Positions 3,776-51,287 of a stretch of 64,000 bases of DNA are shown here, one piece after another. Below the pieces are notes generated by a model that saw only the letters and a list, made by a program, of their open reading frames with translations, made no database searches and was not told where the DNA came from. This stretch comes from Smithellaceae bacterium (GTDB lineage Bacteria > Desulfobacterota > Syntrophia > Syntrophales > Smithellaceae): NCBI GenBank assembly GCA_963682015.1, contig OY820932.1:3210386-3274385 (forward strand), written 5' to 3'. The position numbers and the translations under genes were made by a program. Positions within the stretch are counted from its first letter, which is position 1. Every line of letters starts with the position of its first letter.

Positions 3776-3779
3776 GCGG

Positions 3780-4961
3780 ATGAAAAAGCCATTTCTGGAT
3801 CTGAGCATGCAGCCGGTCACCAACGCGTATTTATCCGCCGGGGAAATCGCAGGTGAATTTCTCTATCCTTTGTCGATTGGTTTTGATGAAGAAACAAAGC
3901 TCGTTTCATTAATGGAATTTGTCAAGCCGCAGATGATGTTCAATGATACCTATGCTCACCGGGCGTCCATGTCGGCGACCATGCGAGAGTCATTTAAGGA
4001 GATTGCCTTATCCATAAAAAGGACATTCCGGCCTGCGGGAATCCTGGAAATCGGCAGCAATGACGGCGTTTTTATAAGACATTTCGACAAAGAGGAAGCC
4101 GTTGCCATAGAACCCTGCGGGAACCTGGCTGAAATCACCGAGACGATGGGATATAAAACCTATCCGGTATTCTGGAACAGGGAAACGGCCGGACACATTG
4201 TTGCCCGTCACGGGAAAATGGATGTGGTGTATGCCGCCAATACCATTTGCCATATCGAGGACTTGAAAGAGGTATTTGATGCCGTGTCTATGGTCCTGAA
4301 CGATTCCGGCGTTTTGATCTTTGAAGATCCTTCTTTGTATCATGTTTTGGAAAATACATCCTATGATCAGTTTTATGATGAACATGCGCATGTCTTTTCC
4401 GTCATTGCCTTAAAGAATATTCTCGGTAAAAGCCATTTTGAAATATTCCGCGTGGAAAATCTTTCCACCCATGGAGGGTCCAACCGCATTTATGCAAAAA
4501 AGATCTCAAACCCTTCCCGTGCGATAGACGAAAGTGTTCAGGCCAGTATTCAAAAAGAACTGGATGCTGAAATGGATAGAATAACCGCCTATGAATATTT
4601 TGCCGCGAGAGTGATGAAATCAAAAGAAGACCTCGTCGCATTGCTGACGGATATCAAACGGCAGGGGAAAAAAATTATCAGTTACGGGGCGACTTATAAA
4701 TCCGCGACCATTTTTAATTATTGCCGGATCGGGACCGGTCTGATCGATTACATTACGGATACGACCCCGAATAAACAGGGCAAACTGTCTCCCGGTATGC
4801 ATATCCCCATTGTGGCTCCCGAACAGGGATTTAATGACAGTGTGGACTATGCGTTCCTGGGTGCGTGGAACTTTTCTAAGGAAATTATGAACCGGGAAAA
4901 ATCATTTATTGAAAAAGGCGGAAAATTCATCACGCATGTTCCCTGTGTGAAAGTTTTATAG
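3780..4961 (+). CDS. SAM-dependent NDP-hexose C-methyltransferase (TylC3/EvaC-like)
   Basis: The N-terminal LDLSMQPVTNAYL box, SAM motif I ILEIGSNDGVF and a long C-terminal domain are typical of sugar C-methyltransferases. The N-terminal Cys zinc ribbon seen in many homologues is absent. Confidence 0.7.
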   Translation: MKKPFLDLSMQPVTNAYLSAGEIAGEFLYPLSIGFDEETKLVSLMEFVKPQMMFNDTYAHRASMSATMRESFKEIALSIKRTFRPAGILEIGSNDGVFIRHFDKEEAVAIEPCGNLAEITETMGYKTYPVFWNRETAGHIVARHGKMDVVYAANTICHIEDLKEVFDAVSMVLNDSGVLIFEDPSLYHVLENTSYDQFYDEHAHVFSVIALKNILGKSHFEIFRVENLSTHGGSNRIYAKKISNPSRAIDESVQASIQKELDAEMDRITAYEYFAARVMKSKEDLVALLTDIKRQGKKIISYGATYKSATIFNYCRIGTGLIDYITDTTPNKQGKLSPGMHIPIVAPEQGFNDSVDYAFLGAWNFSKEIMNREKSFIEKGGKFITHVPCVKVL

Positions 4962-4973
4962 GAGAGTAAGTTT

Positions 4974-5402
4974 ATGATCGAGCATCTGGTGAAGGAACAC
5001 AAAATTAAATTTCATGAAGACGATAGGGCGCAAAGAATTCAGGATGTGTATCAAGCGGGCATGTCCGACGCCCAGATCAATATCTCCCATATTCATTCTC
5101 CGGACCATATCATCGGCTGGCATTGCCACACCAAACAGACGGAATACTGGTTTGTGATTAAAGGCGCCTTGCAGGTCGGGCTTGCGCTGCCCGCGGAAAG
5201 CGGCAACAGCCCTGAAGTGAAATTTGAATATTTATCGGAGAAAAATCCCCGGACGCTGGAAATCCCGCCAGGCGTTCATCACGGATACAGGGCTTTAATT
5301 CCGGGCACCATTCTGATGTACTATATCACCGAAAAATATGAAAAGGTTTCCAAATATGACGACATCCGAACGCCGATAGGCGGTTTTAACGAGCAATGGT
5401 AA
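4974..5402 (+). CDS. RmlC-like cupin, NDP-4-keto-6-deoxyhexose 3,5(5)-epimerase family (short form)
   Basis: 142 aa with GWHCHTKQTEYWFVIKGALQV ... IPPGVHHGYRAL ... YYITEKY, matching the RmlC/EvaD beta-roll core. The N-terminus is shorter than in classical RmlC. Confidence 0.6.
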   Translation: MIEHLVKEHKIKFHEDDRAQRIQDVYQAGMSDAQINISHIHSPDHIIGWHCHTKQTEYWFVIKGALQVGLALPAESGNSPEVKFEYLSEKNPRTLEIPPGVHHGYRALIPGTILMYYITEKYEKVSKYDDIRTPIGGFNEQW

Positions 5403-5409
5403 GCGGCCC

Positions 5410-6699
5410 ATGACCCAATCAGCGGCAAATATCGAACCGATCATGACCTGGATGAGAGAAAGACAAAGCAGCGCGTCTTTTGAAGTCAAAGAAATTCCGC
5501 TGTCTGCGCTGGACGAATGGCATTATGATGACCAACAGGGAAGCCTGGTGCACCGTTCCGGAAAGTTTTTCAGCGTCAGAGGCATCGAAGTCGAAACCGA
5601 TTTCGGCTCCGTCTCTAAATGGAGACAGCCCATCATCAATCAGCCGGAAATAGGGATCCTGGGCCTTCTGTCCAGAAGGATTGACGGTAGACGACAGTAT
5701 CTGATGCAGGCGAAGATGGAGCCGGGAAACATCAATATCCTTCAGCTTTCACCGACCGTTCAGGCGACCCAAAGCAATTATTCGCGGGTTCATCGGGGGA
5801 AAAAGACAAACTATCTTGAATATTTCAATCATTCGTCGGGTTCCCGGGTGCTCATGGACAAACTGCAATATGAACAGGGCGGGCGGTTTTACCGGAAATT
5901 AAACAGGAACATTCTGATGGATATTCAAGACGACATTCCTGTTCTTGATGATTACTATTGGATGTCTTCGGCGCAAATCGCCTTACTTTTGAACATGAGC
6001 AATATTGTCAATATGGACAGCCGGTCGGTTCTGTCCTGCATGCTGAAGAAAGACAAAAAGGACTATCCGGTCAATACGGACCATCATATTTCAGCCTGGC
6101 TGTCCGCGATGAAAAACCGTCATCATCTGGAAACAAAATGGGTAGCCCTGGATAAACTGGAAGACTGGCATTTTCGCGATCATCATATTCAACACAGAGA
6201 TGAAAAGTATTTCACCGTTGTCGGCATAGAAACCAGAGCCAGCAACCGGGAGGTACAAAGCTGGAGGCAACCCATCTTTAAAGAAACCAACATCGGGTTG
6301 ACCGGCTTGATCATCAAAGAAATCAATCAAACGCCCCATTATCTAATGCAGGTCGTGCTGGAAGCGGGAAAAACGTCCGTTAAGCTGGCGCCGACGGTTC
6401 AGTGTTCGGACTATAAGAATAAAAGCGGGTCCGTTCCGTACATCGACCGTCTGTTGCATGACGGGGAAATTTTATATGACCAAATCCAGTCCGAAGAGGG
6501 AGGACGGTTTTATCATTTTCAAAACAGGAATATGGTGGTTAAAATAAAAGATGATCTGCAAGCTGAAGATCATTTTATATGGGTCACGCATAATAAGATC
6601 GTGGACTTGATCGATCAGGGGCATTTAAATATCGAAGCCAGGACGCTGATGGCCTGCTGGAACGCTTTAAACAATCATGGCGGATATCAATATGATTAA
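5410..6699 (+). CDS. NDP-hexose 2,3-dehydratase (EvaA/TylX3 family)
   Basis: Internal duplication characteristic of the family: WRQPIINQPEIGILGLL...LMQAKMEPGN...LSPTVQAT...EQGGRFY and WRQPIFKETNIGLTGLI...LMQVVLEAGK...LAPTVQCS...EEGGRFY. Confidence 0.85.
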   Translation: MTQSAANIEPIMTWMRERQSSASFEVKEIPLSALDEWHYDDQQGSLVHRSGKFFSVRGIEVETDFGSVSKWRQPIINQPEIGILGLLSRRIDGRRQYLMQAKMEPGNINILQLSPTVQATQSNYSRVHRGKKTNYLEYFNHSSGSRVLMDKLQYEQGGRFYRKLNRNILMDIQDDIPVLDDYYWMSSAQIALLLNMSNIVNMDSRSVLSCMLKKDKKDYPVNTDHHISAWLSAMKNRHHLETKWVALDKLEDWHFRDHHIQHRDEKYFTVVGIETRASNREVQSWRQPIFKETNIGLTGLIIKEINQTPHYLMQVVLEAGKTSVKLAPTVQCSDYKNKSGSVPYIDRLLHDGEILYDQIQSEEGGRFYHFQNRNMVVKIKDDLQAEDHFIWVTHNKIVDLIDQGHLNIEARTLMACWNALNNHGGYQYD

Positions 6700-7831
6700 A
6701 GTTTGGGATTATCTGGAAGAATATCATCTGCTGAGGGATGAAATCCTGAAAGCCGTTGACGGCGTTTTTAAAGGCGGCACGCTTGTTTTCGGACCGCGAG
6801 TCCGGGAATTTGAAGAAAAGTTTTCCGCCTATTGCGACTGCAAATATGGGATAGGGGTTGGAAACTGCACCGATGCGCTCTACATCGCCTTGAAAGCCCT
6901 GGGGATTGGACAGGGAGATGAAGTCATTACGGTTTCCAATACGGCCGTGCCGACGGTTGCCGCTATTGCCGGCGCGGGCGCCACGCCGGTGTTTGTAGAT
7001 ATCGACCCATATTCCCTGATGGATGTCAGCCTGCTGGAAAAGAGAGTAACGGAAAAAACCAAAGCTATCATCCCGGTTCATCTGTTCGGGCAAACCTGCG
7101 ATATGGACCCCATTGTGAAAATCGCGAAAAAATATTCGCTGAAAGTCATTGAAGACTGCGCTCAATCCCACGGCGCGCTGTACAAAGGGAAAAAGGCGGG
7201 GTCCATGGGGGATGTGGGGTGCTTTTCATTTTATCCGACCAAAATATTCGGCGCGTATGGCGACGGCGGTTTTATTTCGACCAATAACGAAGAGCTGCAT
7301 GACAAAATGAACCGGCTGAGGTTTTTTGGCATGGAAAGAAAAACCATGTCCACCGGGCATTGGAACGGAAAATATTATTCCCTTGACCATGGACCCGATA
7401 CCGTCAATTCCCGTCTGGATGAAGTTCACGCGGCCATCCTGCTTGTCAAACTGCCTCATCTGGATCAATGGATTGACCGGCGCAGAGAAATCGCCCGGAG
7501 ATACCAACAGGAATTTTCGGGAACCCGGCTCGAACTGCCGGAAGAAGCCCCCTGGAACCGTCACGGATATTATATTTATGTTGTCGCTCATCCGGACAGA
7601 GATTCAATCATGCGGGGACTGATTGAAAACGACATTCATCTCAATATCAGCTATCCCTGGCCCGTCCATATCATGGAAGGCTATCAATATCTCGGATGGA
7701 AAGAAGGAGACCTTCCCGTTACGGAACATAGAGCAAACAGGATATTTTCGCTTCCGATGTATCCGATGCTGACCGATGAAAAAATACAAACGGTCGTTGA
7801 TGTCTTAAAGAAGCTGCTGAAAAAATACTAA
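6692..7831 (+). CDS. DegT/DnrJ/EryC1/StrS-family PLP-dependent sugar aminotransferase
   Basis: Shows NCTDALYIAL, HLFGQ and the Schiff-base lysine context FSFYPTKIFGAYGDGG. The ORF opens at 6677, but ATG 6692 (MIKVWDYLEEY) overlaps the upstream stop (ATGATTAA) and is the likelier start. Confidence 0.9.
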   Translation: MIKVWDYLEEYHLLRDEILKAVDGVFKGGTLVFGPRVREFEEKFSAYCDCKYGIGVGNCTDALYIALKALGIGQGDEVITVSNTAVPTVAAIAGAGATPVFVDIDPYSLMDVSLLEKRVTEKTKAIIPVHLFGQTCDMDPIVKIAKKYSLKVIEDCAQSHGALYKGKKAGSMGDVGCFSFYPTKIFGAYGDGGFISTNNEELHDKMNRLRFFGMERKTMSTGHWNGKYYSLDHGPDTVNSRLDEVHAAILLVKLPHLDQWIDRRREIARRYQQEFSGTRLELPEEAPWNRHGYYIYVVAHPDRDSIMRGLIENDIHLNISYPWPVHIMEGYQYLGWKEGDLPVTEHRANRIFSLPMYPMLTDEKIQTVVDVLKKLLKKY

Positions 7832-7881
7832 TGAATAAAATGATTTTGAGTTTGCATATTTGATAAGCCCCGGTCGCCCGA

Positions 7882-8982
7882 ATGTCAAAAGACAGAGAAT
7901 ATCAGAAAACCGCGTCAACACCTTTTTTTTCAATAGGTATCACAACCTATGACAGGGTTGATATGCTCATTGACGCCATCAATTCCGTTCTGGGTCAGAC
8001 CTTCCATGACTATGAAGTCATGGTTTCCAATGACAATCCCGCAAGAACCTTGACCGGCGAAACTTTAGGCATTCATGATCCCCGGGTCGTCTTTATCAAC
8101 CAGACACATAATCTCGGCGAATTCCATAACATGGATTATTTATTGAAAGCCAGCCGGGGCGCCTATTTTACCTGGCTGGCGGACGATGATTATTATGCAC
8201 CCGGTTTCCTTCAAAACGTTTATGAAGCTCTGCGAGCAAGCGCCGATGCGCCGCCCTGCGTACTGACATCCTTTAAAATCAGTTACCGCAATCCGCGCTC
8301 TTTGCAGCATGGTGAAAAGGAAATTAAAAAGAAAAAAGTTCTGGTTTACAGCGGGCGGCGGTTTTTACAGGATTACTGGCAGGGCCGGATCAAAGTGATC
8401 GGCACAACGGGTTTTTTTACAAAACAATTTCTTATGGACAGCGGCGGTTTTAAAAAATTGACCCATCTGCCGATTGCGATTTTCAGTGAATATTTATTGA
8501 TCATGCAGATCAGTCTTCTGGAAAAAGTGCTGGTGATCGACGCCCCTTTAATCTGCCTGAGGGTGCATGACGGGTCGTGGTCGGAAAGCAACAGGGATTA
8601 TCAGTCGTCCCGGACGGCGGGTATAAACTTCTTGAAAGCGAGCATGGAAATCTTTCAATCCCCTCTGGCGGAGGAATATGATTACCGGAAAAATGTAACC
8701 GGCGCCATCAAGCTGATTCTGAAGACGGCAGCCCATACCAGCGCCAGAAGAAAAAACATCGTCATCGCCCTTTCGAATTTTTCATATTTAAGAGCTCTGA
8801 AGCCTTTGATCTGGGCGCTCAGGGGATCCGAATTCTTCCATCAGGCCGTCCGAAGTTACTTTTTCGCGTCAATGTGGTTCCTTCTGTATTTTCCGCGAGT
8901 CCTGCTGGTTACCGTCATGCCCGATTCCGTAAAGACTCGTGTCAGCAAAATGCGTTACGCCCTGCGTAGCAGGATGGCCTGA
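7882..8982 (+). CDS. Family-2 glycosyltransferase
   Basis: N-terminal FFSIGITTYDRVDMLIDAINSVLGQTFHDYEVMVSNDN and the acidic WLADDDYY motif (DxD). Confidence 0.8.
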   Translation: MSKDREYQKTASTPFFSIGITTYDRVDMLIDAINSVLGQTFHDYEVMVSNDNPARTLTGETLGIHDPRVVFINQTHNLGEFHNMDYLLKASRGAYFTWLADDDYYAPGFLQNVYEALRASADAPPCVLTSFKISYRNPRSLQHGEKEIKKKKVLVYSGRRFLQDYWQGRIKVIGTTGFFTKQFLMDSGGFKKLTHLPIAIFSEYLLIMQISLLEKVLVIDAPLICLRVHDGSWSESNRDYQSSRTAGINFLKASMEIFQSPLAEEYDYRKNVTGAIKLILKTAAHTSARRKNIVIALSNFSYLRALKPLIWALRGSEFFHQAVRSYFFASMWFLLYFPRVLLVTVMPDSVKTRVSKMRYALRSRMA

Positions 8983-9104: not shown

Positions 9105-9929
9105 ATGGAAAGTCAAATAGCTCAGGCCATCAAATTCAAATATCGGTTGGTTGCGCTTTTATGGTCCGATGAAAAGCCCGAAGGCGCTATGCAGTTTTCC
9201 GAAGGCAAATGGGGATGCGTCATGTGGCTGGTCGTTTCGGCAGCCAAGGGAAAACCGGCCGTGGCCGACGTCAAAACCTTCGGCTGTGTCGGCGGCGGTG
9301 TAGGGCTTGGATTCGGTAACCAGTATCTCAACTTTCCCGGCGGAGAAGAGGGATTCTGTTACTTCCTGTCTTCAGGAAATGCCGGCCGGTCCGGCGGTGC
9401 GGAACTGGCCGAGCAGATCAAGCCCTTCATGACCAGGGAAAGCCATGATAATTTTCTCCACGGCGAACGCTATATCCGGAATCCCGACGGTGTTCGAAAG
9501 TTTATCAGTTCTCTTCCGCTTACGGACATTCCCGCAAAATATGCTGTCTTCAAACCGCTTGACGCCGTTGATTTATCCAGGGAAAGACCGCAGACGGTTA
9601 TTTTCTTTGCCAATCCCGATCAGCTTTCCGCACTTACGGTGCTGGCTAATTATGGCCGCGGTGACAATGAAAACGTGGTCATGCCTTATGCCGCCGGTTG
9701 CCAGACGATCGGCATTTATCCTTACAGGGAAGCGAGGTCGGACCGGCCCCGCGCCGTGGTGGGATTAACCGATCTGTCCGCCCGCCTCTATGTCCGCAAA
9801 CAACTTGGCGAATCCCATTTTCTGACCTTTGCCGTTCCTTTTGCCTTGTTTGAAGAAATGGAAAAGAATGTTTCCGGATCCTTTCTTGAACGGCATACCT
9901 GGCAGGGATTACTCAAGACGGAAGATTAA
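9105..9929 (+). CDS. DUF169-family protein (function unknown)
   Basis: 274 aa. The N-terminal pattern LVALLWSDEKPEGA...KWGCVMW and the size fit DUF169 (COG2043) as I remember it. Not verifiable here. Confidence 0.5.
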   Translation: MESQIAQAIKFKYRLVALLWSDEKPEGAMQFSEGKWGCVMWLVVSAAKGKPAVADVKTFGCVGGGVGLGFGNQYLNFPGGEEGFCYFLSSGNAGRSGGAELAEQIKPFMTRESHDNFLHGERYIRNPDGVRKFISSLPLTDIPAKYAVFKPLDAVDLSRERPQTVIFFANPDQLSALTVLANYGRGDNENVVMPYAAGCQTIGIYPYREARSDRPRAVVGLTDLSARLYVRKQLGESHFLTFAVPFALFEEMEKNVSGSFLERHTWQGLLKTED

Positions 9930-9953
9930 AAATAACGGAAAAGGGAATGTCTT

Positions 9954-10856
9954 ATGAGAAAGAACATTGTCCGCTGCCTGATCGTGGCATGGTGTCTGGC
10001 GGCGCTGTTCGCTTGTCAGGATGACTCGCTGCCGGGGTACAATACTTATTCCGGGACTTACTGCATCACGGCTCGGGATCACATTCTGCAGATTCAGCAG
10101 ACAGGTCTCAGTGTCAGTTTTACACTGACGGCGGATACGCAGACGGTCACAGGATCAGGAACCGTGACCGGGAACAAGATGAAGCTTCAGGCAACAGTGG
10201 ACGGAAAGATACTGGCTCTGGTCCTGGCTTTTGCGGCGGACGGTAAAAGCTTTGTCGGGGAATTTACCCTGGACGGAATGACATCCGCATATGACGGAAC
10301 CAGGGGGAAGTGTCCGGATATTTATCCGTCGGGGGATATCTCATTGATCAGTCCCTATGTGAATTTTACGGACATGGCCTCTGTTCACAGGGGGTTTGGA
10401 TGCAGCGTGACCAGCCCGTGGCAGGAACACAGCGGCCTGGATGTTGTTCCGGCCGGTGATCTCAAGCCGTTTCGGGCGATGGCTTCCGGCAAGGTTGTCG
10501 ACATTACCCCTACCCGTTATCCGGGGAACAACAACTGGATGACCAGTGTCGTGGTGAAATACAATAACGCTTACAGAGTTCTCTATGCTTTTGAAAACCT
10601 GACGCCGAATGACGTGGATCGGGACATTCAACTGGCCAACCTGAATGTTTCCATCGGACAGATCATTGCCCAGGGAGATGTTCTGGGCAGACTGCACACG
10701 GTTGCCGGTACCTATTATCATGTTCATATTTCGCTGATAAAGAACGGAGAGAGAATCTGTCCCGAATCATATTTAACCGCCGATGCCCTTGAGGGCCTCT
10801 ATAATCTGATTCACGTGGAGTATCCGGATTTGCAGATGTGTTATGCATGTGAATGA
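9954..10856 (+). CDS. Lipoprotein with C-terminal M23 (LytM-type) metallopeptidase domain
   Basis: Signal peptide with lipobox-like LFAC. M23 motifs HSGLD (HxxxD) and YHVHIS (HxH). Confidence 0.65.
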   Translation: MRKNIVRCLIVAWCLAALFACQDDSLPGYNTYSGTYCITARDHILQIQQTGLSVSFTLTADTQTVTGSGTVTGNKMKLQATVDGKILALVLAFAADGKSFVGEFTLDGMTSAYDGTRGKCPDIYPSGDISLISPYVNFTDMASVHRGFGCSVTSPWQEHSGLDVVPAGDLKPFRAMASGKVVDITPTRYPGNNNWMTSVVVKYNNAYRVLYAFENLTPNDVDRDIQLANLNVSIGQIIAQGDVLGRLHTVAGTYYHVHISLIKNGERICPESYLTADALEGLYNLIHVEYPDLQMCYACE

Positions 10857-11576: not shown

Positions 11577-11908
11577 ACGGCCCTTTTCATGATGATACCC
11601 GCATTCGGATGGGGAAAGTATTTGCAATGCCTCTTCCCTTTCGACTCACCATTTTTCCCCATAGCAATTAATAAAAATAAAATAAAGATAATTTTCCCTT
11701 GCGCCGTAAAACAATGCATGGTAGGCCATTCACGAACTGGCAAAAGCGAGCGCCCGCTCTTATTTTTTCGATGGACGTGGATAGTTATTGAAACAAAAAG
11801 CAGAGCCCCGGAGATTTCAGTCACCGTCCCTTGTTTTTCTGTAAACGTCGGTTTTTCGGTCAAAAACCAGAGACACCGATAGAAAATAATCATGAGAGGA
11901 GATATAGA

Positions 11909-12781
11909 ATGGATCCTACCGTATCGATGTACATATCCCAGGGGATTCACGGGATAGCGTACGGGATGATATTGTTTTTGATTGCATCGGGATTGAACAT
12001 TATCTTTGGGATGATGGGGATTTTGAACATGGCCCACGCGGTGTTTTTCATGCTGGCGGCGTACATTTGTTACGCGGTGGTGGGGCTTACCGGGAGCTTC
12101 TGGGCGGGATTGCTGGTGGCTCCGTTGGTGACGGCGATGTTGGGCATCGTAATGGAGCGGGTGTTTTTGCGGACGGCGCACAAAGTGGGGCACTTTGGAG
12201 AACTGATTTTGACGATGGGCATCGGGAGCGTGATCGTGGCGGCCATCAAGAAGATCTGGGGGACGGAGAGCATGCCTCTGCAGGTACCGGATTTACTTCA
12301 GGGAATGGTGAACATTTTCGGGATATCCTACCCGATATACCGCCTGTTCGTGATCGGCCTGGCGCTGGTCATCCTGGTATTCATGATGCTGCTTTTGTAC
12401 CGGACGCGCCTGGGAAAGATCGTACGTGCGGCGGTGTCGGACCGGGACATGGTGAACGCTTTGGGGATCAACATCAATCTCGTGTTCATGTTCGTATTCG
12501 GAGTCGGCACATGGATGGCGGGAATCGCGGGTGTGGCCATTGCGCCGATTCTGACGGTGTTTCCGGGGCTGTCGGATCAGGTGGGGATGGACGCATTCAT
12601 CGTGGTGGTGACGGGCGGATTCGGGAGCCTGGCGGGGGCGTTTATCGTCTCGCTGATCTTCGGGCTTTTGAGCTCCTACGGCGTCCAGTTCGTGTCCCAG
12701 TTTGCGCCGGTTTTGATGGTGGTGTTCATGGCCATCGTCCTGGCGTTTCGCCCTAACGGACTATTTGGAGTGAAGGAATGA
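11909..12781 (+). CDS. livH: ABC transporter permease, LivH/HAAT family
   Basis: 290 aa polytopic protein. ATG 11909 follows GAGAGGAG and equals the start of the identical copy at 45110. The longer ORF from 11831 is probably not used. Confidence 0.9.
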   Translation: MDPTVSMYISQGIHGIAYGMILFLIASGLNIIFGMMGILNMAHAVFFMLAAYICYAVVGLTGSFWAGLLVAPLVTAMLGIVMERVFLRTAHKVGHFGELILTMGIGSVIVAAIKKIWGTESMPLQVPDLLQGMVNIFGISYPIYRLFVIGLALVILVFMMLLLYRTRLGKIVRAAVSDRDMVNALGININLVFMFVFGVGTWMAGIAGVAIAPILTVFPGLSDQVGMDAFIVVVTGGFGSLAGAFIVSLIFGLLSSYGVQFVSQFAPVLMVVFMAIVLAFRPNGLFGVKE

Positions 12782-13770
12782 CGACCATGAACAATAAAGC
12801 AAAAAACATAATTTTGTGGCTGATACTGCTGGCCTTTCTGGCCTTTTTCCCCAAACTGTTCGGAGTGTACTACACGAACATGGTGGTAACCTTCGCGATC
12901 TTCTCCGTATATGCTTTGTCGTTGAACATGCTGATGGGGTACACGGGACTGTTGAGTTTCGGACACGCCATGTTTTTCGGGTTTGGCGGCTACGGCACGG
13001 CGCTGGCATTGAAGCATATTGAAGGGATCGGGGTCTTTCCGGCCATCGGCATCGGCGTCCTGGCGGCGGCGGTCCTGGCCTTGATTTTGTGCCCCCTGGT
13101 GGTCCGGGTGAGCGGGACGGCATTCGCGATGCTGCATCTGGCGTTTGGACAACTGTTATACGTTCTGGCCCTGAAGTTATATCCGATTACGGGCGGAGAA
13201 GACGGGATCGCGAACTTTCCGGTACCGGGACTCTTTACCGAGAGCCTGAAGAGCTCCCCGGAACACATGTATTACCTGGCCATGATTGTCCTGGGATTCT
13301 GCGTCTGGCTGATGTGGTTTGTCACCAAGACCCCGTTTGGACAGATCCAGGTGGGGATCCGGGACAACGCCAAGAGAATCGACTACCTGGGCTACAAAGT
13401 GCCGCAGTCGAAAGCGGTGGTTTATACCCTGTCGGCGGTGTTTGCCGGCGTGGCGGGCTCCTTCTACGGCCTGTTCCACAACCTGGTATCGGCGGACGGC
13501 TCGCTGGGGATCGGGATGTCCTTTTCACCGATCGTCTGCATCATGATCGGAGGCGTGGGAAGCTTTTTCGGTCCGATGATGGGGACGGCGGTGTTTCAGC
13601 TCATCGACGAGTTGATCCTGCGGTACACGGAGAGCACGGAGCTGGTGATGGGCATCATCCTGGTTGCGGTGGTCATGTTTATGCCGATGGGCTTTACGGG
13701 ATTGTTTAAGATGGGATGGTTGAAGGTAAAAGCCCGGTTTGCCCCGAAAGCGAAGGAGAAGGCGTCATGA
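12778..13770 (+). CDS. livM: ABC transporter permease, LivM/HAAT family
   Basis: 330 aa polytopic protein whose start overlaps the livH stop (ATGA). Typical LivM core LSFGHAMFFGFGGY. Confidence 0.9.
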   Translation: MTTMNNKAKNIILWLILLAFLAFFPKLFGVYYTNMVVTFAIFSVYALSLNMLMGYTGLLSFGHAMFFGFGGYGTALALKHIEGIGVFPAIGIGVLAAAVLALILCPLVVRVSGTAFAMLHLAFGQLLYVLALKLYPITGGEDGIANFPVPGLFTESLKSSPEHMYYLAMIVLGFCVWLMWFVTKTPFGQIQVGIRDNAKRIDYLGYKVPQSKAVVYTLSAVFAGVAGSFYGLFHNLVSADGSLGIGMSFSPIVCIMIGGVGSFFGPMMGTAVFQLIDELILRYTESTELVMGIILVAVVMFMPMGFTGLFKMGWLKVKARFAPKAKEKAS

Positions 13771-14516
13771 ATAATATACTGGAGACAAAAGATTTAAAGC
13801 ACAGTTTCGGTCCGTTGAGAGTGCTGTTCGGGGTGGACCTGCAGATTGCGGAAGGGGAGCGACACGCGGTGATCGGCCCCAACGGCGCGGGGAAGACGAC
13901 CTTGTTCAACACCATTACAGGGACATACCACCCGACCCACGGCAAGGTATTCTTCAAGGGGAATGACATTACGGGATTTCCGCCGCACAAGCTGGCGAGA
14001 ATCGGGATCGGGCGTTCCTTTCAGATTACCAGTACCTTTACGTACCTGACGGCGTTTCAGAACATCCGCCTGGCGATTTTGTCGAAAGACGGGGTCCGGT
14101 TCAATCTGTTTCGGAAAGTGGACCGGATGGAGAAGCTGACGGAAGAGACCAACGCGATGCTCAAAAGGATCAACTTGTATGAAGACCGCAACGTGATGGC
14201 CTGCAACCTGTCGTACGGGAAGTCCAGAGCGCTGGAGATCAGCATGGCTCTGGCGACGGACCCGGAGCTGGTTCTGCTGGATGAGTTTGCGGCGGGGATG
14301 TCGAAGGAAGAGACGGCCGACGCGGTAGCCCTGATCCGGAATCTGACCCAGGGGAAGACCGTGGTGCTCATCGAGCACGATATGGACGTGGTGTTCAACC
14401 TGGCGGACCGGATCACCGTATTACATTACGGGAAGATCCTGGCGACGGGGAAGCCGGAAGAGATCCGGAACAATCAGGCTGTGAAAGACGCCTATCTGGG
14501 CGATCTGGAAGTATAA
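13767..14516 (+). CDS. livG: ABC transporter ATP-binding protein, LivG-like
   Basis: Walker A GPNGAGKTT, signature LSYGKSRALE, Walker B LVLLDE. ATG 13767 (MNNILETKDL) overlaps the livM stop. Confidence 0.9.
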   Translation: MNNILETKDLKHSFGPLRVLFGVDLQIAEGERHAVIGPNGAGKTTLFNTITGTYHPTHGKVFFKGNDITGFPPHKLARIGIGRSFQITSTFTYLTAFQNIRLAILSKDGVRFNLFRKVDRMEKLTEETNAMLKRINLYEDRNVMACNLSYGKSRALEISMALATDPELVLLDEFAAGMSKEETADAVALIRNLTQGKTVVLIEHDMDVVFNLADRITVLHYGKILATGKPEEIRNNQAVKDAYLGDLEV

Positions 14517-14583
14517 AGGATAAGATGAAACGGCTCTTTTTGCGAAGCCGTAGAAACCCTCTCAAAAATATGAGGAGACGCAT

Positions 14584-15300
14584 ATGTTACTGGAAGTAAA
14601 GAATCTAAACACTCACTATGGACCGAGCCACGTATTGCAGGGAATCAACCTGAGTATTGCGGACGGGGAGCTGGTGGCTCTTCTGGGAAGAAACGGGATG
14701 GGGAAGAGCACGACGTTGAAGAGCATCATGGGGATGGTGAAACCCACCTCCGGTTCCGTCATGTTTCAGGGGCAGGAGATTGCGGGTCTTCCTCCGTATA
14801 AGGTGGCCAGGGCAGGGATCGGCTATGTTCCCGAAGAGAGAAGAATCTTTCCGGAGCTGACCGTTTTGGACAATCTGCTTCTGGGGATTAAAGACGGGAA
14901 GGTCCGGAACCCGAACGATCCGAATACGTGGACGATCGAGCGGATTTTCCATCACTTTCCGAAGCTGGCGGAGCGGACGAATCAGGCGGGCGGACGACTC
15001 TCCGGCGGGGAGCAGCAGATGCTGTCGATCGGCCGGTCGCTGATGGGGAATCCGAAGTTATTGCTGGTGGATGAGCCGTCGGAGGGATTATCGCCGATCA
15101 TGGTGCAGGAAGTGCGCAACGTTCTGGCGGAGATCAACAAGGCCGGAGTGTCGGTGCTGCTGGTGGAGCATAACCTGAAGGTGGCTCTGTCCCTGGCGAA
15201 CCGGGTCTACCTGATGTCCAAGGCCTGCATCGGCTGCGAAGCCACCGCCACCGAAGTCAAAGACAACCATGAGCTCCGCGCTCAATATCTCGAAGCGTAA
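14584..15300 (+). CDS. livF: ABC transporter ATP-binding protein, LivF-like
   Basis: Walker A GRNGMGKST, signature LSGGEQQML, Walker B LLLVDEPS. Confidence 0.9.
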   Translation: MLLEVKNLNTHYGPSHVLQGINLSIADGELVALLGRNGMGKSTTLKSIMGMVKPTSGSVMFQGQEIAGLPPYKVARAGIGYVPEERRIFPELTVLDNLLLGIKDGKVRNPNDPNTWTIERIFHHFPKLAERTNQAGGRLSGGEQQMLSIGRSLMGNPKLLLVDEPSEGLSPIMVQEVRNVLAEINKAGVSVLLVEHNLKVALSLANRVYLMSKACIGCEATATEVKDNHELRAQYLEA

Positions 15301-15317
15301 CGCGTCGAGATATTTTC
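15284..15317 (+). terminator. Hairpin enclosing the livF stop codon (weak attenuator/terminator candidate, locus 1 only)
   Basis: AATATCTCGA (15284-15293) pairs perfectly with TCGAGATATT (15305-15314), and the inner GCG/CGC leaves TAA as the loop. TTTC follows. The right arm lies outside the repeat, so copy 2 lacks the hairpin. Confidence 0.4.
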
Positions 15318-15401
15318 ATGATTTCCGAAAGCAGGAGGGATGACCGCAATATATTTGGAAGCGTAACGTGCAAGAGAGCATGATCGTAATAAGGGGGAAG
15401 C

Positions 15402-16448
15402 ATGACAGCTGAAAACAGTAAGGTGATGAGCGTTCGTGATGCCATATCCAGATTTGTTCACGACGGCGATGAACTGGTAATCGGAAATTATACGGTCGGG
15501 AGTTGCGCGGAACTCGTTTATGAGGTTGTCCGCCAGGGACGCAGAGGATTGACCGTTTTTTCACAATCCGGGATTTTTGATGTGGAGGTCCTGGTCGGCG
15601 CGGGTTGCACCGATAAACTGATCAGCACTTACGTGTTGAGAGCTGGAGGGAAAAAAGGCGGATCGGCCGTGGAAAGGGCGCTGAATGCCGGAACCCTGCA
15701 GGTCGAAGACTATACAAACTTTCAGTACAATGCCCGGCTGGTGGCGGGCATGCATGGCTTTTCCTATATCCAGGTGCTGGAAGGCGCAATAGCGACGGAT
15801 ATTTTCAAGAAACGCAGCTTCATGGGAGAAAATAAATTTCGCATCATCAAGTGCCCCTATACGGGAAAAGATCAGTTGACGGTGCCGGCGGCCAATCCGG
15901 ATGTCTGCATCGTCCATGTACAGCGCTGCGACAGGTTTGGCAATGCGCAGTACTGGGGGGCTCTCGGCAGCGTCGCCGCCGCCGCACTGGCCAGCAAACG
16001 CATTATTGTTTCCTGCGAAGAAATCGTCGAACATGACATCATCCAATCTAGTCCTCACCTGACAATCATTCCCGCCTATCGCGTAGACGCAGTGTGTGAA
16101 GTTCCCTGGGGAGCCAACCCGACGGAAGTTCTCGGATACTATAATCTGGACCAGTTTATGTACGGATTGTTCCTGATGATGGACGGTACAGCCGATGGTT
16201 TGAAGGCTTGGATGGACGAATGGGTTTACGGCTGTGAGAACCGCGCCGCATATATCGATCACTATATTCAGAAATTCGGCAGCAGGAATCTGGATGGCCT
16301 CCGCTGCAAACCCTACTATTCAGCTCCGGCCAATTACGGAATTGCTTTCACCTCCCGTTGGACGAACGATGGAGTGGAACGCGCCATCGGAATGTCACTT
16401 TCGGAATTCGAACAGACATTAAGGGAAAGGGGGAAGCTCTATGAGTAA
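15402..16448 (+). CDS. Family-I CoA-transferase, subunit A (GctA-like)
   Basis: 348 aa with N-terminal MSVRDAISRFVHDGDELVIGN. Overlaps the subunit B gene. Paralogue at 48555-49601. Confidence 0.8.
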   Translation: MTAENSKVMSVRDAISRFVHDGDELVIGNYTVGSCAELVYEVVRQGRRGLTVFSQSGIFDVEVLVGAGCTDKLISTYVLRAGGKKGGSAVERALNAGTLQVEDYTNFQYNARLVAGMHGFSYIQVLEGAIATDIFKKRSFMGENKFRIIKCPYTGKDQLTVPAANPDVCIVHVQRCDRFGNAQYWGALGSVAAAALASKRIIVSCEEIVEHDIIQSSPHLTIIPAYRVDAVCEVPWGANPTEVLGYYNLDQFMYGLFLMMDGTADGLKAWMDEWVYGCENRAAYIDHYIQKFGSRNLDGLRCKPYYSAPANYGIAFTSRWTNDGVERAIGMSLSEFEQTLRERGKLYE

Positions 16449-17253
16449 ACCATATACGCTGCAGGAACTGCTGGTGATCGCGGTTGCAAGAGAAATTCAT
16501 GATTATGAGAATGTGATTCTGGGCGTCGGTCTGCCGACAACGGCGGGTGCCGTGGCCAAAGCCCTGTATGCGCCTCATGCGACACTGATGATGGAGTCCG
16601 GCATTATCGATTTTGAACCGCTTCTGCCGCTCAATCATATCGCCGACGCCCATTCCTGCCGGGGATTTTCCTACGCCACGGATCTGTTTTCCGCCTTTAC
16701 CATGACGTATCGTGGTTTCGTGGATGTCTGTTTCCTCGGCGTCGGGCAGGTCGATAAATACGGGAATCTGAACACCACCTGCATCGGCGACTACTATAAA
16801 CCGACCATGCGCCTGCCGGGTTCGGGCGGTGCGTGCGATTTTCTGTCCTACGCCAAGCGCACGGTTCTGACCATGCTGGGCGGCAATTTTGTGGAAAAGC
16901 TCGATTATTTCACATCACCCGGATACCTGGATGGCGGGAACAGCCGGGACGAATCGGGATTGTTCCCGAAAGGGACGGGACCGACCATGCTTCTTTCCAC
17001 CAAAGGTATTTTCCGTTTTGATTCCGTGACCAAAGAAATTTATCTGGCCCAGATTCATCCCCGGGTAACGCTGGAAGACGTGAAGAAAGACGTTCCCTGG
17101 GATTTGAAAATTTCTCCGGATTTGTCGGAAACGCCGCATCCCACGGACGAAGAAATAGATTTCATTCGCCGCTTCTCACCGGCTGCGTCAGCCGGGCGGG
17201 AACTGGCCATGGAATTGATGATTACGAATTTAATGAAGCAAAGCAAGGGGTGA
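16441..17253 (+). CDS. Family-I CoA-transferase, subunit B (GctB-like)
   Basis: 270 aa. LMMESGIIDF carries Glu52 in an ESG motif, at the position of the catalytic beta-subunit glutamate of glutaconate CoA-transferase. Confidence 0.8.
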   Translation: MSKPYTLQELLVIAVAREIHDYENVILGVGLPTTAGAVAKALYAPHATLMMESGIIDFEPLLPLNHIADAHSCRGFSYATDLFSAFTMTYRGFVDVCFLGVGQVDKYGNLNTTCIGDYYKPTMRLPGSGGACDFLSYAKRTVLTMLGGNFVEKLDYFTSPGYLDGGNSRDESGLFPKGTGPTMLLSTKGIFRFDSVTKEIYLAQIHPRVTLEDVKKDVPWDLKISPDLSETPHPTDEEIDFIRRFSPAASAGRELAMELMITNLMKQSKG

Positions 17254-17307: not shown

Positions 17308-18783
17308 ATGAGAAGAACTGGCAAAATGATTTTCATGATTTTGATGAGTGTTCTGCTTATCGGTACCCTGTCACTGGCCATGGCGGCGAAAGACGATAAA
17401 GCCTCAAAAGCGAAAGCTAAGGCAAAGGCTGCCAAGACACAGGTGATCCCTGCGGCGAAAGCTGCTTTTGATGCCAGCAAGATGGGCAACATGAGCGGCT
17501 GGGATCCCGCCAACTGGGTGAATCCCGAAGGCGATGTCGTTCGTCTGGCCATTATCTGGCCCCATTCAGGTCCCGGTGCATTCAACGGTCAAATGGCATG
17601 GCTGTGCGCTACCTTTGTAGCTTATGATATCAATCAACGCGGGGGTATTCTGGTCGACGGAAAAAAGAAAAAGATCGCTTTGATTAAAGCCGACAGTCAG
17701 TCCAACCCGGATATCGCCAAAAAAGTTTGCGAGAGAATGGTTCTTCAGGAAAAAGCAGATGTCCTCGTTGGCACATCGGGCAGCAATATCATGAAGATCA
17801 TCAATTCGGTCGGAGGCAAGTACAAAGTAATATCTTTAAATATTGCATCGCTGGCCGATGACCTTCAGGATGCAACCAATTTCTCCCGTTACGCTTTCAT
17901 GACATCCGATTCGGTGGACGCGGTGGGCCGCGGTGTGGCCTATTTTTACGGCCAGATTCGCAAGAAAGAGAAAAAGTTCTATATTCTCTGCCAGGATTAT
18001 TCCTTCGGTCGCGGTCTGGCCGATGGTTTCAAAAAGGGTTTGAAAGAATACTATCCGGAAGCGCAAATCGTGGGCGAAGATTACCATAAGCTTTTCCTTA
18101 CGGACTTTGCTCCCTACCTGACGAAAATCAAAGCAGCCGGTGCGGAAGTTATTTATACCGGGGACTGGACCCCGGATGCGGGTAACCTCTTGAAACAATC
18201 CCGTCAGATGGGCATTAATATCCCCTTTGCGAACATTTTCATGGATGAACCTCTCATGCTGTCGGAAGTCGGCGTGGAGGGGACCAAGGGCCTCATGAAT
18301 ATCAAACACTATGAGACAACAGGCGCGGCCTTCACCAGCCCCGGCATGAAGAAATACTACACGGCGTGGAACACCGAATGGAAAAAATTTACGGTGGCGC
18401 CCTTCAACAGCGTCACGTTTACCTGGCCGTGGGGCACGTTCGGTTTCTGGACGCAGCAACTTTACTGGTTCGTGAGCGTCATGGAGAGAGCCGGCAGTAC
18501 CAACGCGGAAAAGATCATTCCGGTTTTCGAGGGGGATTCCTACCAGTTTGTCAGCGGCCGCGTGGTCAAGATGCGTGCCTGCGATCACAAGGCCATCCAG
18601 GGATTCCGGATGTGCGAATTTGTTCCGCCCGATCAGCAGAAGGTGTCCATGAATATGCCGCCGTATTACTGGTCGAAACAGAGTTCGATGTGCGGTCCGA
18701 CCTGGGAAATTCCGGCGGAAAAAGTTCTGCCTTGGATGGATGATAAACTGGATCGCTGCAAGGGGAAGAACGGAGCCGAATAA
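17308..18783 (+). CDS. Periplasmic substrate-binding protein, LivK/Peripla_BP_6-like, long form (paralogue 1 of 3)
   Basis: Signal peptide MIFMILMSVLLIGTLSLAMA. Core LAIIWPHSGPGAFNG, YYGQIRKKEKKFYILCQDYSFGR and MRACDHK. 491 aa. Confidence 0.85.
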   Translation: MRRTGKMIFMILMSVLLIGTLSLAMAAKDDKASKAKAKAKAAKTQVIPAAKAAFDASKMGNMSGWDPANWVNPEGDVVRLAIIWPHSGPGAFNGQMAWLCATFVAYDINQRGGILVDGKKKKIALIKADSQSNPDIAKKVCERMVLQEKADVLVGTSGSNIMKIINSVGGKYKVISLNIASLADDLQDATNFSRYAFMTSDSVDAVGRGVAYFYGQIRKKEKKFYILCQDYSFGRGLADGFKKGLKEYYPEAQIVGEDYHKLFLTDFAPYLTKIKAAGAEVIYTGDWTPDAGNLLKQSRQMGINIPFANIFMDEPLMLSEVGVEGTKGLMNIKHYETTGAAFTSPGMKKYYTAWNTEWKKFTVAPFNSVTFTWPWGTFGFWTQQLYWFVSVMERAGSTNAEKIIPVFEGDSYQFVSGRVVKMRACDHKAIQGFRMCEFVPPDQQKVSMNMPPYYWSKQSSMCGPTWEIPAEKVLPWMDDKLDRCKGKNGAE

Positions 18784-21303: not shown

Positions 21304-23109
21304 TTACAACTGCTCTTCGGGAAGATTGATCGCCGAAGTGTCTTCCAGTTTGATGATGCGTGCCCGGCCGAAAACCTGGGGCAGGAAGTTTCGGCAGTAG
21401 TAGCGTATGGTCTCGATCTTGCCGCTGTAGAAATTCCTGTCCGCTTCATCAAGCGAACCTTTGCCCAGTCTGCCCTTCGCGATGATGCCCTGCTCCAGGA
21501 GCAGATGGGCGATAGCTACTTCCGACATGCTGTCAAGGAATCGTGTCGAAGTGAAAGGTACCAGGTCGAGTTTTCCTTCCGCGAAATAACGGCCGTAGTT
21601 GGTGGCCAGTTCGATGATGGCTTGGAGTGCTTCCTTGAGGGTGGCGATTTCCGGGGCGAAGGTTGTGTCCATGGCATTTTTCTGGACAAAAGACATGATT
21701 TCGGCAATCCAGTCGCCGAAAACTTTTCCCTTGGACATGTTCAACTTGCGGCCCACCAGGTCGGCGGACTGAATGAAGGCTGTTCCGTCCCAGATGGAAA
21801 GGATCTTGCTGTCGCGCGTATACTGCTCCATTGGATATTCCTTGGTGAAGCCGTAGCCGCCCAGAATCTGGATGGCGTCGCGGCCCATTTCGAAAATCCG
21901 GTCGCCGCAGTAGCCTTTGACCAGCGGTGTGATCAGCTCGACGCGCTGATGCGCTTTTTTGCGTTCTTCTTCATTTGCGCCGTGAACGGCGATATCTTCC
22001 AGGAAGTAGGCCTGATAAACCAGCGCGCGCATGCCTTCGGTCAGGGCCTTGAGATTCATGAGCATACGGCGGATGTCGGCGTGATTGACGATGGGAACCC
22101 GCACGCCGTCGTTGCGGCCGAAGCGCGTGCCCTGAACACGTTCTTTGGCGTAAGCCAGCGCATTGGCGTACATATTGGCGCCAAAGGCCACGGCTTCCGC
22201 GCCGACGGCCATTCTCGCGCCGTTGACCATCTGGAACATATAGGCGAGTCCCATTCCCTCTTCGCCGATCAGGTGTCCGCGGCATTTGCCGTTTTCGCCG
22301 AAATTCAGGACGCTGGTGGCGGAAGCATTAAGCCCCATTTTATGTTCGATGCCGATGCAGGCCATGTCGTTTCGTTCGCCCAGCGTTCCGTCATCGTTCA
22401 CCCAGATTTTCGGCACGGCAAAGAGGGAAATGCCTTTTGCTCCGGCGGGTGCTCCTTCAATACGTGCGATGACCAGATGAATGATATTTTCCGTCAGATT
22501 GTGTTCGCCGGAGGTGATGAAAATTTTCGTTCCCTGGATTTTATAGTATTCGCCGTCCCGAATTGCTTTGGCGGCGACCATGTGGGCGTCGGAACCCACG
22601 CTGGGTTCGGTCAGGCACATCGTGCCGCACCAGGTGCCGTCATACATCTTCGGGCAGAAAAGGTCTTTGATCTTTTGGGATCCGAAGTTTTCAATCATCA
22701 TGCCGTTGCCCGGTCCCATGCCGGAGAAGTTGCAGAACCCGAAGTTGGCGCTCATGAAGAACTCGGAGGCTGCTTCAGCAATGATAAAAGGAAGACCCTG
22801 CCCGCCGTATTGTGCAGAGTTGCCCAGTGCGAACCAACCGCCCTCCCGGAAGACATCCCAGAGATGATGAAATGATTTCGGAACGGTAACGACGCCTTTG
22901 TCGAAATGGCAGCCTTCACGGTCGCCGTCCTGAAAGGTAGGCGCCAGTTCCGTTGCTGCGATTTTCTGCGCCTGTTTGAGGATCATGTCGAAATCCTCCA
23001 TGGTGAATCCTTTAAAAGCTTCAAAGCTTAAAAGTTTTTCCACTTTCAACTGTTCGTTCAGGACAAACCGGACATCCCGGTCGTCACGCTTGTAAAAATT
23101 CTGTCCCAT
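21304..23109 (-). CDS. Long-form acyl-CoA dehydrogenase (about 600 aa)
   Basis: Shows MCLTEPSVGSDA, FITSGEH and ILGGYGFTKEYPMEQYTRDSKILSIWDGT, plus a C-terminal extension. AGGAGGAG RBS before ATG 23109. Confidence 0.9.
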   Translation of the reverse strand: MGQNFYKRDDRDVRFVLNEQLKVEKLLSFEAFKGFTMEDFDMILKQAQKIAATELAPTFQDGDREGCHFDKGVVTVPKSFHHLWDVFREGGWFALGNSAQYGGQGLPFIIAEAASEFFMSANFGFCNFSGMGPGNGMMIENFGSQKIKDLFCPKMYDGTWCGTMCLTEPSVGSDAHMVAAKAIRDGEYYKIQGTKIFITSGEHNLTENIIHLVIARIEGAPAGAKGISLFAVPKIWVNDDGTLGERNDMACIGIEHKMGLNASATSVLNFGENGKCRGHLIGEEGMGLAYMFQMVNGARMAVGAEAVAFGANMYANALAYAKERVQGTRFGRNDGVRVPIVNHADIRRMLMNLKALTEGMRALVYQAYFLEDIAVHGANEEERKKAHQRVELITPLVKGYCGDRIFEMGRDAIQILGGYGFTKEYPMEQYTRDSKILSIWDGTAFIQSADLVGRKLNMSKGKVFGDWIAEIMSFVQKNAMDTTFAPEIATLKEALQAIIELATNYGRYFAEGKLDLVPFTSTRFLDSMSEVAIAHLLLEQGIIAKGRLGKGSLDEADRNFYSGKIETIRYYCRNFLPQVFGRARIIKLEDTSAINLPEEQL

Positions 23110-23188: not shown

Positions 23189-23203
23189 GCATATTCCATG
23201 CCA
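23189..23203 (-). promoter_or_regulatory. sigma-54 (-24/-12) promoter of the ACAD-SMP30-HBD operon
   Basis: The minus strand reads TGGCAT-GGAAT-ATGC, with GG and GC at canonical spacing, about 80 nt upstream of ATG 23109. Confidence 0.75.
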
Positions 23204-24242: not shown

Positions 24243-24257
24243 TGGCATGAAACATGC
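24243..24257 (+). promoter_or_regulatory. sigma-54 (-24/-12) promoter of the small exported-protein gene
   Basis: TGGCAT-GAAAC-ATGC, 36 nt before ATG 24293. Immediately preceded by the inverted repeat TGTTGCAG-N7-CTGCAACA (24213-24235). Confidence 0.7.
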
Positions 24258-34001: not shown

Positions 34002-34016
34002 GCATATAACATGCCA
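34002..34016 (-). promoter_or_regulatory. sigma-54 (-24/-12) promoter of the carboxylesterase gene
   Basis: The minus strand reads TGGCAT-GTTAT-ATGC, about 80 nt upstream of ATG 33924. Confidence 0.65.
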
Positions 34017-34075: not shown

Positions 34076-34091
34076 TGGCACCGACTTTGCA
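34076..34091 (+). promoter_or_regulatory. sigma-54 (-24/-12) promoter of the CocE/NonD hydrolase gene
   Basis: TGGCAC-CGACT-TTGCA is a perfect match to the canonical TGGCAC-N5-TTGCW, 68 nt before ATG 34159. Confidence 0.8.
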
Positions 34092-38331: not shown

Positions 38332-38360
38332 TATACCGATTCCCTGCCTGTTTGAAATCA

Positions 38361-38407
38361 TGTCCGATGTTGGGACGTTTTATGGTTTCATGTTCCCTTA
38401 TCGGACA
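38361..38407. promoter_or_regulatory. Two tandem activator dyads (TGTCC-GATGTTG-GGACg and TGTtC-CCTTATC-GGACA)
   Basis: Sites at 38361-38377 and 38391-38407 have centres 30 bp apart, about 156 and 126 bp upstream of the -24 GG at 38525. An A/T-rich tract (38455-38515) lies between the sites and the promoter. Confidence 0.65.
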
Positions 38408-38523: not shown

Positions 38524-38538
38524 TGGCATGGATGATGC
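38524..38538 (+). promoter_or_regulatory. sigma-54 (-24/-12) promoter of the thiolase-ACAD-transport-CoA-transferase operon
   Basis: TGGCAT-GGATG-ATGC, about 90 nt before ATG 38629, divergent from the activator gene. Confidence 0.75.
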
Positions 38539-38628
38539 TCAGGAAGCATCCGAGAAACTGTTCGAGTCCTGAAAATGGATAAAGATCGACGTGAAAATGC
38601 GATCCAAAATATAAAACTAGGAGGAAAC

Positions 38629-39846: not shown

Positions 39847-39862
39847 TCCGGTAGTTTCAGAA

Positions 39863-51265: not shown

Positions 51266-51287
51266 CTCAACAAGGAAGGAAAATAAA

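Follow-up and report, generated by a model that had tools for sequence, protein, structure and literature searches.

Why should two transporter loci whose other genes are well diverged share one stretch of DNA that is identical at nearly every base? The question is raised by a 64,000-nucleotide stretch of contig OY820932.1 from a Smithellaceae bacterium (the window, by which this whole stretch of 64 kb is meant; unless stated otherwise, coordinates are positions in it), in which four livH-, livM-, livG- and livF-like genes for the core of an ATP-binding cassette (ABC) importer occur twice, as copy A at locus A and copy B at locus B. The analysis below indicates that these are probably two real paralogous cores, lying in old and differentiated uptake-and-activation loci, that have recently been homogenised by gene conversion. 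The features in question are the following.

11906-15301, + strand: repeat copy A, a livH-livM-livG-livF-like HAAT ABC importer core (exact comparison, 1 mismatch in 3,396 bp)
45107-48502, + strand: repeat copy B, the same four genes in locus B (exact comparison)
15240, + strand: sole mismatch between the copies, A15240 versus G48441, synonymous, third base of a livF codon (GAA/GAG, Glu)

The two copies, each 3,396 bp long, lie at an offset of 33,201 throughout with 0 indels and 1 mismatch, exactly as an initial sequence-only reading of the window had described them, and the limits which it gave for the tract also proved accurate: the first base of the exact run is 11906, 3 nt 5' of the livH ATG (11909), and the last is 15301, 1 nt past the livF TAA (15298-15300). 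The shared tract covers all synonymous sites but one, together with the 67-nt livG-livF spacer, and all eight core open reading frames (ORFs) of the two copies are intact. Outside the tract, identity at the same offset is 16-34% per 100-bp bin, which is random. A repeat search over the whole window returned no second near-identical repeat, the remaining paralogous stretches being 68-78% identical. A mobile element or cassette, such as an insertion sequence (IS), transposon or integron, was considered and rejected, as mobility genes, terminal repeats and target-site duplications are lacking: Pfam detected no transposase or integrase domains in or beside the repeat, no inverted or direct repeats bracket the segment, no target duplications occur at its edges, and the edge sequences of copies A and B differ from each other.

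The segment is the core of a HAAT-family ABC importer (TC 3.A.1.4, LivHMGF/BraDEFG-like). Pfam identifies PF02653 twice, PF00005 twice and PF12399 in its products, and three binding proteins of the Peripla_BP_6 type (PF13458) are encoded nearby, at 17308-18783, 41836-43440 and 43539-45002. The four genes are given here for copy A, with the positions in copy B.

11909-12781, + strand: livH-like permease (PF02653 BPD_transp_2, E 1e-34); copy B 45110-45982
12778-13770, + strand: livM-like permease (PF02653, E 4e-38); copy B 45979-46971
13716-14516, + strand: livG-like ATPase (PF00005 and PF12399 BCA_ABC_TP_C); copy B 46917-47717
14584-15300, + strand: livF-like ATPase (PF00005, E 4e-33); copy B 47785-48501

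The livG-like ORF overlaps livM by 55 nt and its start codon is uncertain. None of the four proteins reached the NCBIfam cut-off for a LivHMGF or UrtBCDE equivalog: the top scores were 186 against a cut-off of 250 for UrtB, 72 against 379 for LivH, 133 against 296 for UrtC, 240 against 304 for UrtD, 208 against 362 for LivG, 231 against 286 for UrtE and 187 against 441 for LivF. The name livHMGF is therefore used as a family-level label only. Because the neighbouring genes encode CoA-transferase, thiolase, acyl-CoA dehydrogenase, hydratase and dehydrogenases, the gene context suggests that carboxylic acids, rather than amino acids, are the substrates of the transporter. These neighbours are listed below.

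11741-11765, + strand: terminator-like hairpin AAAAGCGAGCGCCCGCTCTT with a T-run (palindromic), between the upstream gene and copy A, conserved in orthologues of locus A
15402-17253, + strand: CoA-transferase subunits A (15402-16448) and B (16441-17253), locus A (PF01144)
17308-18783, + strand: binding protein, locus A (Peripla_BP_6)
36298-38361, - strand: sigma-54 enhancer-binding activator, divergent from the locus B operon (PF00158 and others)
38575-41839, + strand: thiolase and acyl-CoA dehydrogenase, head of the locus B operon (domain search)
41836-43440 and 43539-45002, + strand: two binding proteins, locus B (Peripla_BP_6; 69% amino acid (aa) identity to each other)
48555-50439, + strand: CoA-transferase subunits A and B, locus B (PF01144)
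50489-53798, + strand: three short-chain dehydrogenases and an enoyl-CoA hydratase, downstream in locus B (domain search)

Locus A thus runs from the terminator-like hairpin through a private leader, the core and CoA-transferase subunits A and B to one binding protein, while in locus B a thiolase and an acyl-CoA dehydrogenase are followed by two binding proteins, the core, the CoA-transferases, dehydrogenases and a hydratase. The flanking paralogues are 56-70% identical in aa and 66-72% in DNA overall, in agreement with the many substitutions previously noted in them: CoA-transferase subunit A of locus A and that of locus B share 59.8% aa and 67.0% nt, subunit B shares 70.0% aa and 70.7% nt, and the three binding proteins share 56-69% aa pairwise (56-60% between that of locus A and the two of locus B). 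The flanks had also been called co-linear, which holds for the CoA-transferase pairs but not for the binding proteins, as their genes lie 3' of the CoA-transferases in locus A and 5' of livH in locus B.

Whether the two loci are old can be judged from their relatives. The closest sequences in public genomes are metagenome-assembled genomes (MAGs) of Smithellaceae/Syntrophaceae at 80-94% aa identity, with the complete-chromosome MAG OY821638.1 as the best of them; no protein identical to those of the window was found in public records, and the window LivM was likewise absent from the collection. A-type loci, which consist of a core, A-type CoA-transferases and an A-type binding protein, were found in many relatives, and those compared were L081-85, L094 and L095-100, with L018 (OY821638.1), L164 and L161 (a scar, described below) as B-type loci. 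In the nearest A-type loci, L081-85 and L094, the CoA-transferases are 89-94% identical and the core proteins 80-91%, the CoA-transferase A subunit of the A-type orthologues being at 89-91% aa. The B-type loci L018 and L164 have CoA-transferases at 89-94%, with subunit A at 89%, the full gene order of locus B and a core in the same place. Compared with A-type and B-type cores alike, the window core has 77-82% DNA identity (~80%), and for most of the flanking orthologues the figure is 81-86%. Related genomes, which had been named as the place to look for diverged cores, therefore contain them at both loci, and as both positions held homologous cores long ago, the 99.97% identity points to recent homogenisation and not to recent duplication. 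The pattern is that of concerted evolution, with window paralogues at 99.97% and orthologues at ~80%, and the flanking genes of each copy are the same across relatives, a conserved synteny which also argues against recent duplication.

The DNA around the cassette is likewise native to each locus. The sequence GGGAAAGGAAGT upstream of copy B is common to L018 and L164, and the leader and hairpin of copy A are common to L081-85; exact 19-21 nt matches to AAAAGCGAGCGCCCGCTCTT lie 5' of livH in L081, L083, L082 and L085, within intergenic DNA that is diverged among the A-type orthologues. For each copy, the DNA just 5' of the core, with the ribosome-binding region of livH, has its orthologue in core-bearing relatives of the same locus type; what the loci share is thus the cassette alone, between native flanks. 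Conservation is strong in all locus types over the opening 45 nt of livH and the final ~25 nt of livF, and in the identity profile of the cassette the top score falls to the first 150-nt bin; directly outside the cassette, the loci carry unrelated or 67%-identical DNA.

More direct signs of exchange were found in the relative OY821638.1. This genome has two cores, L001 and L018, which are ~109 kb from each other, oppositely oriented and 92.3% identical, with tracts of 99-100% identity alternating with stretches of 65-89%. Among 3,324 aligned sites there are 255 mismatches; identity is unbroken for up to 520 bp, while permutation (5,000 trials) gave a longest run of 76 on average and 228 at most (P<=2e-4). 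L018 resembles its paralogue L001 more closely than its orthologue L164, to which it is 84.8% identical. Similarity between L001 and L018 sets in at the livH ATG; the bases just 5' of it differ, and the upstream binding-protein genes are ~65-70% identical. Such mosaic tracts indicate that homologous conversion operates on this cassette.

Phylogenies of the core and of the flanking genes, the comparison asked for by the sequence-only reading, are in conflict. When the CoA-transferase subunits are concatenated, window B and L018 form a B-type pair that falls outside all A-type sequences, distant ones included, with 99-100% bootstrap, and window A groups with L081-85 (87%) and next with L095-100 (98%). 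In the tree of concatenated core proteins, a single 100% clade unites the window, L018, L001, L007, L081-85 and L095-100, and it sits nested among other A-type cores; L001 and L007 are loci without CoA-transferases, and L018 is B-type. The core follows lineage, and the flanks follow locus type. This conflict is a signature of concerted evolution or of repeated cassette exchange.

The core can also be missing from an orthologous locus. L161, on a 3.2-Mb contig, has the B-type gene order with both CoA-transferase subunits 89% identical to those of window B, and only 240 bp separate its second binding-protein gene from the CoA-transferase. In this gap (9762-10000 of L161), the livH ribosome-binding region and ~18 nt of livH are fused to the last ~38 nt of livF, with a ACAACAAC-like microhomology at the fusion point, and the same sequence recurs at 605-843 of L162, from an independent sample. 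The gap is a deletion scar of the core, whose remnant resembles the L005-type core and not the window-type core. L167 (85%) shows, at 9906-10000, a binding protein, a strong terminator hairpin and then the CoA-transferase, with no scar or trace of a core; it has a single binding protein and no short-chain dehydrogenases. In the tree of B-type CoA-transferases, L161 and L167 are sister to the group of window B with L018 and L164; both retain the sigma-54 activator in its position. Judging from these loci, the core is dispensable at a given locus. Where no core lies next to them, binding proteins must depend on a translocator whose genes lie elsewhere, which supports interchangeability and fits the earlier suggestion that one translocator would serve several binding proteins.

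Some further features of the related loci were observed. L164 carries four tandem binding-protein genes, and its livH and livM (6600-8440) have 11 single-base insertions relative to L018, which may be long-read homopolymer errors or mark true pseudogenes. In the distant A-type loci L005 (12497-12745) and L093 (9767-10000), and at the equivalent places of L003 and L011, livF and the CoA-transferase are separated by a conserved, hairpin-rich spacer of 220-250 bp, for example GATACTCCATGA...CATGGAGTATCGCATGAATCATTCCGATGGGGG, which has no Rfam match and may be an uncharacterised regulatory or repeat element. L093, a metagenome contig, also has group II intron RNA domains (RF02005, RF00029) at 4305-4846 on the - strand, a few kb 5' of the A-type locus.

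The age of both loci, the conflict between trees and the mosaic in the relative support what had been proposed from the window itself, namely gene conversion or replacement between older paralogous loci. Non-reciprocal homologous recombination within the genome would have made the two copies identical very recently, and the event in the window would be one episode in an ongoing concerted evolution of the cassette instead of a unique event. The core may be a generic translocator which works with several diverged binding proteins, so that overwriting one copy by the other would be neutral or favoured, while conversion of the binding-protein or CoA-transferase genes would destroy specificity. The DNA identity of the flanks (~67-72%) would no longer be enough for recombination, and the tract would extend to the gene ends and no further, as beyond them the loci have no usable homology. 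Each copy keeps its own 5' region, copy A behind the terminator and private leader and copy B inside an operon beside the sigma-54 activator. That the two copies are differentially regulated is inferred, like the mechanism of recombination and the interchangeability of the translocator. On a wider view, about which we are slightly more doubtful than convinced, the core of Smithellaceae/Syntrophaceae might be an exchangeable 'engine' of one sequence type for several substrate-specific catabolic loci with binding-protein, CoA-transferase and beta-oxidation genes, kept uniform within each genome by recurrent, cassette-limited conversion. Single loci might then lose their core and borrow another, and cores might be swapped between locus types in the course of evolution, which would amount to concerted evolution of a module throughout the family, within operons that otherwise diverge.

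The right edge of copy A has an additional feature.

15302-15409, + strand: junction 'livF 3' end - spacer - CoA-transferase 5' start', duplicated in tandem and diverged

The duplication holds a 21-nt remnant of the livF 3' end, GCAATATATTTGGAAGCGTAA, at 15346-15366, and GAAGCGTAACG is present at both 15291 and 15357. Between the unit at 15280-15345 and that at 15346-15409, 43 of 68 columns match with a score of 15, which none of 2000 shuffles reached (score -9.7 +/- 4.0). The nearest A-type orthologues have one junction of 35-43 bp without a second unit, and copy B is without a duplicated junction. The tail of the junction unit is like the A-type spacer and the start of CoA-transferase A and unlike the DNA 3' of the locus B core; since both units are A-type-like, they are not the trace of a transfer from B to A. 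The duplication may stem from an older unequal recombination at locus A, or may be a scar left by earlier replacement of the cassette, with an A-type-like donor. As to the origin of the 44-nt spacer after copy A, only chance-level short matches were found in all fetched loci.

Several points weigh against homogenisation by conversion as set out here. With the duplicated junction at 15302-15409, the history of the right edge of copy A exceeds a simple conversion. The window copies are identical throughout and show no internal mosaic or breakpoints, so conversion is deduced from their context. A second genome in which A-type and B-type loci occur together was not retrieved (exact-protein look-ups of P0008 and P0136, both on one 4.78-Mb contig, gave no record), and P0189 and P0040, on one 4.77-Mb contig, have other architectures without an adjacent related core. 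The trees were built by neighbour-joining with bootstrap on projected tblastn alignments and not by maximum likelihood, and the grouping of the window with L001/L018, at 94% bootstrap in the core protein tree, has no backing at the DNA level: at the 177 sites which split L081-85 from L001/L018, the window is A-like at 88 and B-like at 73, interleaved over the four genes. Neither these informative sites nor DNA identity, which is ~80% to both types, indicated a direction of transfer. Regarding the single mismatch, the codon is CAG in 7 of 11 aligned relatives and GAG in 1 of 11, so that G is probably ancestral, on weak evidence, and both this polarity and the base after the stop codon are too weak to show direction. 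Assembly or polishing may also have homogenised two copies that were already very similar. Finally, a tract which reaches the last homologous bases on both sides would be unusual for a single conversion, and its limits seem to fit repeated overlapping conversions better than one event.

It could also be argued that the repeat as a whole is an assembly or polishing artefact, the real cores differing more or only one core being present, and consensus building or short-read polishing having made the copies identical. Near-perfect identity limited to a multi-kb repeat is a classic signature of collapsed or cross-polished sequence, the source looks uncultured since its closest database sequences are MAGs at 80-94% aa, and the insertions in livH/livM of the L164 assembly resemble long-read errors. 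An artefact of this kind is nonetheless improbable. Both copies lie in one contiguous 64-kb stretch with unique, differently organised flanks and eight intact ORFs; the one SNP between them shows that they were not copy-pasted; an independent complete MAG has tracts of 99-100% in the same cassette; and as polishing cannot raise ~80% to 100% over 3.4 kb, the true copies must already have been near identical. Far weaker still is the notion that extreme purifying selection alone holds anciently duplicated cores identical, to which we give almost no credence, even though the core proteins are more conserved across locus types than the CoA-transferases, and LivH tblastn scores in related loci are consistently above those of the binding proteins and of the cross-type CoA-transferases. 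Orthologous cores differ by ~20% in DNA, so synonymous sites are free to change, and identity that includes synonymous sites and the 67-nt livG-livF spacer excludes selection as the only cause.

A one-off re-insertion or replacement, in which a core-less or very diverged locus received a fresh copy, partly by illegitimate joining and without ongoing conversion, is the alternative to be taken most seriously, but it too is unlikely. It would account for a tract that equals the whole cassette exactly; core-less B-type loci do exist (L161, L167), and the right-edge junction of copy A, with its older livF 3' remnant, resembles a replacement scar. This scar, however, is A-type-like and cannot stem from a transfer from B to A, and copy B is free of a scar on both sides, as is copy A on its left. 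The upstream DNA of each copy matches core-bearing relatives of its own type, which argues for continuous occupancy, and the mosaic of OY821638.1 shows homologous conversion acting on the cassette. Replacement in a single step is thus possible but less parsimonious than recurrent conversion.

The regulation of the two loci was also considered. Upstream of the thiolase gene that heads the locus B operon lies the following site.

38524-38538, + strand: sigma-54 promoter-like site TGGCATGGATGATGC (pattern match, 2 mismatches)

The number of sigma-54 pattern matches in the whole window is not above chance, so TGGCATGGATGATGC is suggestive by position only; no such pattern was found 5' of copy A. 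A scan for sigma-70 promoters and terminators around locus A gave background level, and no Rfam families were found in the window. Sites of the form TGGCAT/C-N5-(T/A)TGC occur just 5' of operon starts at 23189-23203 (-), 24243-24257 (+), 34002-34016 (-) and 34076-34090 (+), with two more at 38524-38538 (+) and 59206-59220 (+), and the operons behind these sites encode acyl-CoA dehydrogenase, carboxylesterase, S15 peptidase, thiolase and amidohydrolases. Although their count is not above chance, these sites hint at a sigma-54 regulon around the 36298-38361 activator.

Other parts of the window contain further paralogues. Near locus A and near locus B there is a gene for a large acyl-CoA dehydrogenase with an Acyl-CoA_dh_C domain, the two being oppositely oriented (21304-23109 on the - strand and 39980-41839 on the + strand). 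Over a 41-nt stretch these genes are 76% complementary to each other, so the paralogy of the two regions reaches beyond the transporter genes. Tandem paralogues of the amidohydrolase family (59284-60969 and 61057-62742), of 561 aa each and ~71-73% DNA identity, are an ordinary diverged tandem duplicate, in contrast to the homogenised core. In addition, a deoxysugar/glycan biosynthesis cluster at 2789-8982 comprises genes for an NAD-dependent epimerase/dehydratase, a C-methyltransferase, an NDP-hexose 2,3-dehydratase, a DegT-type aminotransferase and a family-2 glycosyltransferase, with a G+C content of ~47-48%, below that of the rest of the window (51.7%).

What deserves attention here is that homogenisation is confined to the inner module of operons that otherwise diverge, which makes this a natural case of recombination and selection acting differently on neighbouring genes of one operon. 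If the reading of the core as an exchangeable module is true, annotation should not pair binding proteins only with the adjacent permease genes, and cores in these syntrophs would be useless as phylogenetic or substrate markers of their loci. The interface between binding protein and permease would then be compatible across binding proteins at 56-69% identity, with the docking surface held constant while ligand specificity diversifies. In practice, caution is called for in MAG assembly and in the mapping of reads for transcriptomics and proteomics, as the two copies are separable at one base only.

Among known systems, segmental or IS-mediated duplication also produces multi-kb, near-identical direct repeats such as this one, whose copies are 33 kb apart. 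The present case differs in having no mobility genes, terminal repeats or target-site duplications, and in that both sites are already filled by an older homologous cassette in relatives.

In E. coli (LivJ/LivK with LivHMGF) and in Salmonella (HisJ/ArgT with HisQMP), one ABC translocator serves several binding proteins. The loci described here have the same HAAT-type composition of two permeases, two ATPases and paralogous binding proteins of different specificity, and the core-less L161 and L167 likewise imply that a translocator is shared. Unlike these classical systems, which have a single translocator operon, the window has two near-identical copies with different upstream regions, and its proteins are not equivalogs of LivHMGF, the gene context pointing to carboxylic acids.

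Concerted evolution by gene conversion is well known from tufA/tufB and rRNA operons. In Nitrosomonadales, it has been described for the amoCAB, haoAB and cycAB operons (Wang & Chen 2018, PMC6053082). As in those operons, the paralogues are near identical at synonymous and non-synonymous sites, the conserved synteny of each copy across species rules out recent duplication, subunits of one complex are homogenised together as an operon unit, and the pattern recurs in related genomes (PMC6053082). Here, by contrast, only the inner module is homogenised while neighbouring paralogues stand at 56-70% aa, and the pattern is seen in two genomes only, whereas long-term persistence is documented for amo and tuf. 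The words 'ABC' and 'transporter' are absent from the text of that survey (PMC6053082), and the literature search found nothing on this cassette or on homogenised ABC cores, only general work on concerted evolution; a limonene-enrichment paper mentioning Smithellaceae was set aside as unrelated to these loci. The process is therefore a known one, and the case is not a new kind of system but a combination of concerted evolution with translocator sharing.

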